Shown here: positions 12,848 to 64,000 of the stretch, in pieces | How positions within the stretch are numbered: the stretch's first letter is position 1 | How the letters are laid out: each line of letters opens with the position of its first letter | Assembly (NCBI GenBank): GCA_951804945.1 | Contig: OX638154.1 | Span: forward strand, 49,104,001-49,168,000 | Source of the DNA: Podarcis cretensis | Taxonomy: Eukaryota | Reading direction: 5' to 3' | Length of the DNA stretch: 64,000 nucleotides | Program-made: the position numbers and the translations under genes | The notes under the pieces: generated by a model | The model's database searches: none | The model's input: the letters and a program-made list of their open reading frames with translations, nothing else | Told to the model about the DNA's origin: nothing

Positions 12848-12922
12848 CCCTAGACAGTCCCGTGGTGCAGACACATCACCCCTCACCAGGAGGAAGTCAT
12901 ATGACCGGGGCCAGCCTATCAG
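12848..12922 (+). CDS. KIF21B: KIF21B coding exon ([24 protein letters not shown])
   Basis: gtctAG acceptor, GTGAGT donor; not in the ORF track. Confidence 0.93.
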
Positions 12923-13046
12923 GTGAGTGTGTGTGAGTGAGTGCAATTGGCAGCAGTTCTTACGCTTTGCTCATAATGCAGAAAATGAATTGTTGTGTGA
13001 TGCAGGATCTAACAGTGCTGCAAGATTATATAATTAGTGGAACCCA

Positions 13047-13307
13047 CCCAGCACCTGCCAACCTAGCAGTTCGAAAGCACCTCCGGGTGCAAGTAGATAA
13101 ATAGGGACCGCTTACCAGCGGGAAGGTAAACGGCGTTTCTGTGTGCGGCTCTGGCTTGCCAGAGCAGTGATGTCACGCTGGCCACGTGACCCGGAAGTGT
13201 CTCCGGACAGCGCTGGCCCCTGGCCTCTTGAGTGAGATGGGCGCACAACCCCAGAGTCTGTCAAGACTGGCCCGTACGGGCAGGGGTACCTTTACCTTTA
13301 CCTTTAC
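13047..13307 (+). mobile_element. Sauria SINE (Squam1/POM-like), 5'-truncated, with (ACCTTT)n tail
   Basis: shares CCTAGCAGTTCGAAAGCAC...GTGCAAGTAGATAAATAGG with copies at 59772 and 63379; ACCTTT tail is typical of Sauria SINEs. Confidence 0.9.
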
Positions 13308-13329
13308 TGCTTCTCTCTTTCTTGCCTAG

Positions 13330-13443
13330 GAACCCAGATGTTGGATTCACTCCTCCTTCATCCCCTCCCAGCAGGCCACGCAACGACCGGAATGTTTTCT
13401 CCCGCCTCACCAGCAACCAGAGTCAGGGCTCAGCACTAGACAA
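13330..13443 (+). CDS. KIF21B: KIF21B coding exon ([37 protein letters not shown])
   Basis: gcctAG acceptor, GTAAGG donor. Confidence 0.95.
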
Positions 13444-14700
13444 GTAAGGCCGCCTGCGGAACTTGGGGAAACTTGTATCCCCATAGAAGGTGACAACAGA
13501 ATGGATAAACTGGCAGTGCCAGGGATATCTTCCCCTTATGTCCCACTCTGCCCAGCACCAAGAATGGCATGTTTTTCTTTGACTTCCAGGTTTGGGCCCT
13601 ATTTGCACTGGAATTAGCACCATGCCTCTGTCACCTAGACACTTAGGTGCAATTACTGTGAAACCTGCCAAATCATTCAGGGAGCCTCTTATGTGCTGTT
13701 GTAGAGGCATGTGAATCAAAGTCCTTGGTCTTTGCGGCCAAGTACCTGAGTCGGTGCTTTAAGCTCAGAAGCACCCTATTCTCCCCATATGTCATGGGTA
13801 GCAGTTCTGAATCTCTTTCCAATCCTGTCTGCAGCCTATAGGGGCCATCTGCTCTGGTGCCCCTTTATTAACAGGTCACCTCTGTTTTAGTGCGGGGGAG
13901 GAATTGGTATGTTTTTTCCAGCACAGGTGTAAGTTTAGCCTTCCAGATATTTCTTCATATTGGAAAGATATTGGAAATCAAGGTCATATGAGTCCTGCCT
14001 TCTAAATACCAGCATGTCAGCTTTGGGTCCACACCCCGCCTCTGGAGTGTGTTCCACAAGCCTCCTGAACGACAGCTGGTGGCAGCATTGACAGAGCTTC
14101 AGTTAACACAATGGGATTCCTCTAACATGGGCTGCCTTGATCTTCAAGGACACAGGGATGATGCTGAATTTTCAAAACACAGAACAGCAGCCCAATAAAT
14201 AAAGGAACCTCTTAGGGCTAAGCTGGCAGTAGAGTGACCTCTGTGACCATTGGGTCCATATTCCCATTTGGAGGTGGCATGGGAGTCACTGCCAACGTTC
14301 TCAGAAGCTGGCCCACCCGTAGCTATGTAGGAGCCTTGGGCAGGCATTCCCAGATTTGTGCACATTCCCTTCTTTTGCAGAAGAACCATACATGCACAAT
14401 AACTCAGCATCCTGAGAATCTCCACTTCCTTTTTGTTCTTAATCCAAGCTCCGAGCCTTATGGCTGTGATGACAGGCTTGCAAGTGTGTGGTGAAGCACC
14501 TAGTTAAAAACTCATGATGGTTTCTGCTACGCACCCCCCACCCCCCCGTTCCTGATCCCTTCTGTCTGTGGTCTGCTCTCCTATGTCTGCCCGCCCTGCT
14601 AGCTTGGATGCAATAACAACCCTTCCTTTTCTGACTATGCTGCTGCTTTTCCTTCTCCTGGTTTTAATTACCCATAATCCTGCTAATTTTCTGTTCCTAG

Positions 14701-17104: not shown

Positions 17105-17465
17105 TTATTTACACCCCGCCTACTATGGGCAGCTTCCAACATAATATAAAAACACAACTAAACATCAAGCATTAAAAACTTCCTGATACAGGGCGGCCTT
17201 CAGATGTCTTCCAAAAGACAAATCACTGTTTATTTCCTTGACATCTGATGGAAGGGTATTCCACAGGGCAGGCGCAACTACCAAGAAGGCCCTCTGCCTG
17301 GTTCCCTAAAGCTTCACTTCTAACAGTGAGGGAACCAGAAGAAGACCCTCGGAGGAGGACTGAGGTGTCCAGGCTAGAGGTGGAGATGCTCCTTCAGGTA
17401 TACAGGGCCGATGCTGTTTAAGGCTTTAATGGTCAGCACCAGCACTTTGAATTGTGCTTGGAAAG
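17105..17465 (-). mobile_element. LINE (L2-like) 3' fragment
   Basis: shares GCCTTCAGATGTCTT...TTCCTTGACATCTGATGG...TTCCACAGGGC with 61900-62135. Confidence 0.65.
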
Positions 17466-59771: not shown

Positions 59772-60121
59772 GGGACGCAGGTGGCGCTGTGGGTTAAACC
59801 ACAGAGCCTAGGGCTTGCAGATCAGAAGGTTGGCAGTTTGAATCCCCGTGACGGGGTGAGCTCCCATTGCTCGGTCCCTGCTCCTGTGAACCTAGCAATT
59901 CAAAAACACATCAAAGTGCAAGTAGATAAATAGGTACCGCTCCGGCAGGAAGGTAAACGGCATTTCCGTGCACTGCTCTGGTTCGCCAGAAGTGGCTTAG
60001 TCATGCTGGCCACATGACCCGGAAGCGGTACGCCGGCTTCCCTGGCCAATAAAGCGAGATGAGTGCCACAACCTCAGAGTTGTCCGTGACTGGGCCTACT
60101 GGTCAGGGGTCCCTTTACATT
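59772..60121 (+). mobile_element. Sauria SINE, full length, TSD TACAGACAA (59763-59771 / 60122-60130)
   Basis: GGGACGCAGGTGGCGCTGTGGGTTAAACC head, B box, GTCCCTTTAC tail, flanking direct repeat. Confidence 0.92.
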
Positions 60122-60719
60122 TACAGACAAGGCTACAGGGTGACTAAGAACTTTCAAACCTTTACGGAAGGTGTAGTATGTTCTTTCTTTACCAGAGAGG
60201 CCACACAATTTGATATATAGCACCTGAAGAGGCTATTCCACTCGGATGCTCTAAAGTCAGTGTGCAAACCAAGTTCCGAAAGCACCAGCCAACAAAACTC
60301 ATCATTTCAAAGAAACAGTCAGTGACTAATCTAATCACCATTGTGTACCTGTTTAGAGACAGTGACTGATGCATGACTTTTGCCTTTTCTGGTGATGGTG
60401 TGAAGATTTCCTGGATCACGCAGACAGATCCAGACAGCAAGCAGAGAAAGAAAGGCCCAGCACATGGCCAGGGATGGATCATCATCTTTTTGCCAGACAG
60501 AATTTGAAAGTTTTGTCTAGGTGCAAAACTGGACTGGCCCTGCCACACAGCAGGGTGATGTGTGTTCAGACAGCGTCATGGGAAGCGGGGTGACCACTAA
60601 AGTCAGGAACTGGTGTCTGGAGGGCACAGCAAGACTTTTATAAGTGTTTGCTAGGGATGGAGGAGAAGTAATTTTTCAAAAGCACTTTAATGAGGAACTA
60701 CCAAATCAGCGCCTCTTGG

Positions 60720-63378: not shown

Positions 63379-63940
63379 AGCGAGAGTGGTGCTGTGGGTT
63401 AAGCCACAGAGCCTAGGGCATGGGTAGGCAAACTAAGGCCTGGGGGCCGCATCTGGCCCAATTGCCTTCTAAATCTGGCCCATGGACAGTCCAGGAATCA
63501 GCGTGTTTTTACATGAGTAGAATGTGTGCTTTTATTTAAAATGCATCTCTGGGTTATTTGTGGGGCATAGGAATTCATTCTTTTTTCCCCGCTTCAAAAT
63601 ATAGTCCGGCCCCCCACAAGGTCTGAGGGACAGTGGACCGGCCCCTGCCAGAAAAAGTTTGCTGATCCCTGGCCTAGGGCTTGCCGATCAGAAGGTTGGT
63701 GGTTCGAATCCCCGCGACGGGGTGAGCTCCAGCACATCAAAGTGCAAGTAGATAAATAGGTACCGCTCCAGTAGTAAGGTAAATGGTGTTTCCGTGCGCT
63801 GCTCTGGTTCGCCAGAAGTGGCTTAGTCATGCTGGCCACATGACCCGGAAGTTGTACGCCGGCTCCCTCGGCCAATAAAGTGAGATGAGCACCGCAACCC
63901 CAGAGTTATCTGCGACTGGACCTAATGGTCAGGGGTCCCT
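63379..63940 (+). mobile_element. Sauria SINE interrupted by a hAT MITE; TSD TTATTACTCC (63369-63378 / 63941-63950)
   Basis: both halves align to the 59772 copy; 10-bp flanking direct repeat. Confidence 0.9.
63419..63671. mobile_element. hAT (Charlie/OC1-like) non-autonomous DNA transposon, 253 bp
   Basis: perfect 8-bp TSD GCCTAGGG; imperfect terminal inverted repeats (TIRs) CATGGGTAGGCAAACT / AGTTTGCTGATCCCTG. Confidence 0.88.
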
Positions 63941-64000
63941 TTATTACTCCTGGACAGGTGGTGAATGGCTTCTACTGTGATGATAACCTATATGTTTTGG

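Follow-up and report, generated by a model that had tools for sequence, protein, structure and literature searches.

Can the tail of a SINE become the branch point of the intron into which it has inserted? The question is raised by an intron of KIF21B in Podarcis cretensis, in which a Sauria-type SINE ends shortly upstream of the acceptor of a coding exon. The stretch of DNA analyzed here, 64,000 nucleotides of contig OX638154.1 (positions 49,104,001 to 49,168,000), is referred to as the window. A sequence-only reading of it had proposed that the insertion displaced an ancestral branch point and that the SINE tail took over. SINE-supplied branch points are already known, and the KIF21B locus adds a natural lizard candidate.

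A SINE tail before a KIF21B acceptor

Protein comparison identified the gene as KIF21B, the best full-length match being 99% to Podarcis muralis KIF21B. The features of the locus are as follows:

12849..12922, + strand: upstream KIF21B coding exon, located by tblastn of proteins P0004 and P0012, with donor GTGAGT at 12923; its start is approximate, one reading placing the end of the acceptor AG at 12853
12923..13329, + strand: intron, 407 nt with the SINE and 147 nt without it
13047..13305, + strand: 5'-truncated Sauria-type SINE, sense-oriented, with an uncertainty of 1-2 nt at its edges
13287..13307, + strand: (ACCTTT)n tail of 3.5 units, with TTTAC at -36, -30 and -24
13330..13443, + strand: KIF21B exon of 114 nt, with donor GTAAGG at 13444

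The protein encoded by exon 13330-13443 is 100% identical to lizard P0004 and P0012, and the intact exon suggests that the acceptor is used in the SINE-bearing animal. The 114-nt exon can be skipped in frame; among 120 listed homologues, which are gene models and not expression data, it is included in 95 and skipped at its exact start in 9. Its size is unlike that of the 180-nt neural cassette of mouse Kif21b (bioRxiv 2024.09.20.614071, PMC3041816). An open frame at 17242-17418 was considered as a counterpart of the mouse cassette and rejected, since it matched none of the 120 proteins and lies within a repeat.

Adenosines occur at -36 (13294), -30 (13300) and -24 (13306), each within TTTAC, and the sequence from 13307 to the acceptor AG (13328-13329) is free of adenosine. 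These positions agree with the sequence-only reading, as does the presence of a CTAAC at 13009-13013, upstream of the SINE. An additional SINE adenosine at 13288 (-42, context GGTAC) was absent from its list. The -24 and -30 adenosines conform to yUnAy, taken here as a position within -34..-21, a U at -2 and pyrimidines at -3 and +1; the adenosine at -36 fits the motif, but falls outside this zone, which contains 83% of human branch sites (PMC2367711). A U at -2 occurs in 74.6% of human sites, the tract begins about 4 nt past the branch point, and downstream sites are favored (PMC2367711). An AG more than 8-12 nt past the branch point gets selected (PMC7969005). The nearest AG upstream of the acceptor, at 13282 (-48), lies within the SINE, and the candidate branch adenosines are followed by a pyrimidine tract with no intervening AG before the acceptor. 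A 7-bp hairpin predicted at 13282..13299 (+ strand) covers the -48 AG and the -36 adenosine; in the predicted centroid structure the -30 and -24 adenosines are unpaired (region z = +1.1).

Four full-length siblings of the SINE (99% identical) carry, by eye, a tRNA-like head with motifs that we take to be Pol III A and B boxes. About 104 nt of this 5' head, the boxes included, are missing from the KIF21B copy. That copy is 98-99% identical to 39 other listed copies (40 scored of 2311 candidates) and shows one private difference (13168) from the four full-length siblings, which makes it very young. Its tail forms a tandem array of TACCTT repeated 3.5 times at 13287-13307, and ACCTTTACCTTT occurs twice in the window, where 0.02 matches would be expected. 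The family is interspersed at high copy number, with 79,718 exact matches to a 17-nt tail anchor genome-wide. Two older Sauria-type copies occur in the window at 59876-60124 and 63731-63943, with 75-76% identity to the KIF21B copy. An (ACCTTT)n tail is a published mark of Sauria SINEs (Squam1; PMC13295347), and one Podarcis muralis fragment in the supplement of that paper resembles the SINE by eye. Our Sauria-type assignment draws on the tail, the head of the siblings and the copy number.

Target duplications of Sauria SINEs start at T or TA (the Tn-TA signature; PMC13295347). Among 84 Sauria loci examined here, a duplication of at least 9 nt was found at 38, a count limited by the search window and by truncated or old copies, and 30 of these 38 start inside a perfect tail. 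What looks like the terminal A of a tail is therefore frequently host-derived, which makes the empty site decisive. An ordinary target duplication was sought at both junctions of the KIF21B SINE and none was found; the site lacks the typical T/TA-initial duplication of some 10 nt or longer and has 0-2 nt.

The site without the SINE

Alleles with and without the SINE are called filled and empty. Contigs were obtained from four related organisms (B-E) in two studies, representing 4 of 24 listed sequencing runs, none of which is recorded as RNA. In all four organisms a SINE-free site was found, each on one contig contiguous across the joint; such contigs show the presence, not the absence, of an allele. 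In X7 and X11, position 13045 is joined to 13306, so that 260 nt are skipped and 2 bases can be placed on either side. In X5, position 13048 is followed directly by 13309, and in X12 the joint contains 21 letters between, ending in the same host flank. Among the pieces listed, those matching the right flank cover 13306-13700 in X7, X11 and X12 and 13309-13700 in X5, and the depth of the flank equals that of the single SINE-free contig. From these joints, the insertion is a clean 260 nt, and its duplication measures 0-2 nt where a long one is usual. Runs labelled with the window's own species contain 0.87-0.99 of the words, and the source may be among them. Organism E has 6 extra bases directly upstream of the former branch zone (window 13030-13048). 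In organism B the joint lies 3 places further right; the ends of the pieces imply that a base has changed two positions past the -24 adenosine.

The comparison defined four further features:

13009..13013, + strand: host CTAAC, the top branch-point motif by matrix and by U2 pairing
13028..13045, + strand: former branch zone of the host, now 260 nt further upstream
13046..13047, + strand: left copy of AC (former -24/-23), assignable to either side of the joint
13307..13329, + strand: polypyrimidine tract and acceptor TAG of the host, also found in empty alleles

The -24 adenosine is present in 4/4 empty alleles, in the context CCCAC and directly before the same tract and AG, whereas the tail adenosines at -30 and -36 are absent from them. 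The SINE therefore gives only the bases upstream of -24 and the TTTAC motifs at -30 and -36. Because the empty allele has the identical two bases there, the AC at 13306-13307 may be of tail or of host origin. The adenosines of 13028..13045 formerly lay at -42, -40, -38, -37 (in ATAAT), -34, -29 and -28, and the remaining host adenosines (-28 to -42) were shifted 260 nt upstream by the insertion. Since all host sequence upstream of -24 has been replaced, every adenosine within reach is either in the SINE or preceded by SINE bases. In this respect the sequence-only reading was right, as SINE bases must now take part in the branch context. It had named a CTTTAC at -24 in the orthologous empty site as evidence against itself; the empty site reads CCCAC, not CTTTAC, but the adenosine at -24 was already there. 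The further proposal, of a portable tail that supplies the pyrimidine tract, is not supported here, as the tract and AG are host sequence found in the empty alleles.

Branch sites were scored with the matrix of Table 4 in PMC2367711 multiplied by a position prior, using two priors, two backgrounds and two widths (eight settings); this matrix derives from 181 human clones and is of modest accuracy, so the scores are predictions and not a mapping, and a predictor examined in that paper recovered just 44% of real branch sites (PMC2367711). In the empty allele the -24 adenosine ranked top in 8/8 settings (share 0.33-0.75), and ATAAT at -37 received 0.02-0.19. In the filled allele the shares were 0.34-0.53 for -30, 0.16-0.43 for -24 and 0.04-0.23 for -36, the wholly SINE-derived -30 adenosine being first or equal first in 8/8 settings. 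CCCAC scored 4.0 bits versus 2.4 for TTTAC under the local background and 3.4 versus 4.0 under the uniform background, so the two motifs are comparable. Each pairs at 3/6 core positions with this genome's U2. CTAAC has the top raw matrix score (4.8-5.5 bits) and forms 4 Watson-Crick core pairs with U2. The U2 comparison consists of fixed-register pair counts, as free duplex energies with an extended U2 slid out of register and were discarded. At least seven full-length U2 snRNA genes are clustered at G000:C16:10.87-12.90 Mb.

A candidate hybrid branch site

We propose, with a probability of roughly 0.55, that the SINE landed directly before an existing -24 adenosine and that the resulting candidate branch site is a hybrid of host tract, shared adenosine and SINE context. 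The -24 adenosine was likely the original branch point, which the SINE likely re-dressed rather than rescuing a lost one. The host AC would have matched the AC of the tail, such that the junction reads as an extra tail unit; CCCAC would thereby have been converted to TTTAC, leaving a usable branch motif in place, and the tail would contribute equivalent motifs at -30 and -36. U2 would pair with SINE bases and U2AF would bind the host tract, with the lariat likely forming at -24 or -30. The insertion was probably tolerated, helped by an exon that is skippable in frame. Given that the target has no TA and no long duplication, the account of priming is one that we infer. The reading that fits best is one fortunate landing, with no general system of donation behind it. 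Against the hybrid site stands the fact that CCCAC has no U at -2, which both ATAAT (-37) and CTAAC (-58) possess, and the top rank of -30 in the filled allele leans to the view taken in the sequence-only reading.

That view is the foremost alternative, and we regard it as possible, if unlikely: the ancestral branch point, ATAAT at -37 or CTAAC at -58, would have been pushed 260 nt away and splicing rescued by the TTTAC of the tail. Every former upstream adenosine was indeed moved away, both motifs carry the -2 U that CCCAC lacks, and CTAAC has both the highest raw score and the 4 Watson-Crick core pairs with U2. Moreover, the ATAAT stretch is retained in organism E despite the adjacent 6-nt length difference, and SINE-supplied branch points have been mapped in a reporter (PMC7969005). 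Against this, -37 takes only its small share of the predictions and lies outside the -34..-21 zone with its 83% of sites, and the -24 adenosine adjoins the tract in both alleles. In the empty allele CTAAC lies at -58 and three AGs separate it from the acceptor, one of them a TAG 24 nt away; in the filled allele it lies at -318, with 23 AGs between. For this acceptor CTAAC is thus unlikely as the ancestral branch site. The replacement of all host sequence upstream of -24 stands from the earlier proposal, but with that adenosine already in 4/4 empty alleles and ranking best there, and with CTAAC unlikely, displacement and takeover becomes the less likely history.

Somewhat less probable again is a weakened acceptor, in which the insertion would lead to the 114-nt exon being skipped in frame more often, or to splicing at the -48 AG, and would persist as recent and of low cost. 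In minigenes, exons with an Alu inserted 25-41 nt upstream were skipped more often, and splicing changed at 5 of 23 Alu loci tested within 100 nt of exons (PMC6326789). A SINE at -15 in dog FAM161A leads to skipping (PMC3976383), and mammalian SINEs are depleted within 100 nt of exons (PMC3088655). The 9 of 120 gene models that skip the exon and the very young age of the KIF21B copy fit this account as well. On the other side, the tract, AG and -24 adenosine are intact with three yUnAy-type motifs within range, the exon protein is 100% identical to relatives, the -48 AG has no preceding pyrimidine tract and is predicted to be paired, and 18 of the 23 Alu loci showed no significant effect (PMC6326789). 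Finally, that the SINE is irrelevant, with the branch falling on a non-adenosine of the host tract or on some distant site, is very improbable: 7.7% of mapped human branch points are non-A (PMC2367711), but no such candidate exceeds a share of 0.05 here, and 23 AGs separate CTAAC from the acceptor in the filled allele.

Known systems share parts of the proposed hybrid site. In a reporter of OGDH intron 4a, a MIR SINE upstream of the 3' splice site carries branch motifs and provided mapped, used branch points, and a functional clone kept a U at -2 before an adenosine of non-MIR origin (PMC7969005). That system is an engineered human library with sites at -60 to -79, whereas KIF21B has a natural insertion with its tail at -24 to -36 and is described from sequence. 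The human polymorphic Alus likewise place a young SINE in the branch or pyrimidine zone, often at a skippable exon, but they have poly(A)/poly(T) tails, their effects are mostly increased skipping, and the main text of PMC6326789 makes no mention of branch points. Canine FAM161A and the Merle SINEC_Cf in PMEL resemble KIF21B in having a SINE in a host acceptor region (PMC3976383, PMC6091007). In the former the SINE causes skipping (PMC3976383) and in the latter an antisense oligo-dT makes a new acceptor (PMC6091007), whereas KIF21B has a sense SINE, an intact tract and AG, and a branch motif that is apparently kept. The KIF21B copy shares the (ACCTTT)n tail with Squam1, and the duplications of its siblings start with T or TA as published (PMC13295347); it differs from a typical Squam1 in its 0-2 nt duplication and in having no TA at the target. 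Within the open-licence literature, searches for Sauria SINE tails serving as branch points yielded no paper, and among the papers listed as naming the Sauria SINE none deals with splicing, judged by title or start of abstract.

KIF21B thus offers a clean natural pair of alleles whose only difference is a SINE exactly at the likely branch position, the tract and acceptor being shared. With this pair one can ask how much the sequence preceding a branch adenosine contributes, and whether a microsatellite tail can serve as a redundant branch array. The locus further carries a caution: where a Sauria tail seems to end, the terminal bases frequently belong to the host target, so signals at tail ends should be called SINE-donated only with the empty site at hand.

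Sauria tails upstream of acceptors genome-wide

The sequence-only reading had asked whether sense tails are enriched 18-40 nt upstream of acceptors genome-wide. Among the 79,718 tail anchors, a tail followed by an adenosine-free 15-mer and YAGG was found 59 times and the control ending in YATG also 59 times, with no excess; the test counts sense tails with an intact anchor and detects strong enrichment only. On the two strands of 239 kb of unselected DNA, YAGG and YATG endings numbered 43 and 38. There was no enrichment, and the data leave room for depletion and may be compatible with a mild sense advantage. For the 59-site pattern, the rough neutral expectation is about 5-18 real acceptors, assuming 190,000 acceptors (an estimate) and a match rate of 13-25%, in which 25% is 4/16 KIF21B acceptors and 13% a guess; two were recognized.

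Three patterns (21, 59 and 13 sites, 6 shared) gave 87 distinct candidate sites, all of which were inspected, the 13-site pattern by eye alone. A recognizable coding exon at the AG was present at three of the 87: KIF21B, a ferroportin exon and a CUB-domain exon. Since the latter two keep host adenosines between tail and tract, KIF21B is the only strict case found among the 87 sites. Pfam matched no family in 61 reading frames behind 53 candidate sites, all of at least 20 aa and free of stops in the reference; as Pfam missed the KIF21B exon itself, exon recognition is incomplete. With one probably tolerated insertion, an exon skippable in frame and no genome-wide excess, general knowledge of transposons and splicing is unchanged.

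A broader conjecture, which we consider doubtful, is that Sauria SINEs are branch-point-safe by construction. Where a sense copy lands on a branch adenosine, the CCTTT end of the tail and the usual T/TA target would rebuild yUnAy at an unchanged distance and add spares, so that sense copies would survive in the branch zone of squamate introns while antisense copies and poly(A)-tailed SINEs would be purged. If true, sense Sauria copies would rewrite squamate branch points lineage by lineage.

Several sites merit individual description. At L011 (G000:C1:123234182, - strand), a sense tail ends about 37 nt before the ferroportin exon (Pfam FPN1, E 5.9e-21) and a host CTAAA is retained between tail and tract. 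At L028 (G000:C17:3288105, - strand), a sense Sauria copy lies before the exon with the CUB domain (Pfam CUB, E 1.6e-13). The target duplication of this copy, 21 nt long, repeats the branch-like TCAAT of the host together with some of the tract, and the acceptor thereby retains its own signals. At L054 (G000:C7:5892204, - strand), a Sauria copy with a 30-nt duplication lies about 100 nt before an exon with no Pfam match, which we presume to be FCHSD1-like, and the tail-adjacent AG is probably not a real acceptor. L036, the site most similar to KIF21B, in which a host adenosine starts a 12-nt duplication and is followed by a tract and CAG, was rejected as it had no PDB match and, by eye, no recognizable gene in 20 kb.

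Independent Sauria copies were also found in near-identical flanks, L013, L014 and L044 forming one group and L012, L015, L016, L025, L033, L073 and L084 a second. The two groups suggest preferred landing spots inside other repeats, and such repeated landing inflates the acceptor-like counts. At L008 and L009, several Sauria copies of differing age lie within 1.5 kb, one of them abutting the tail of another.
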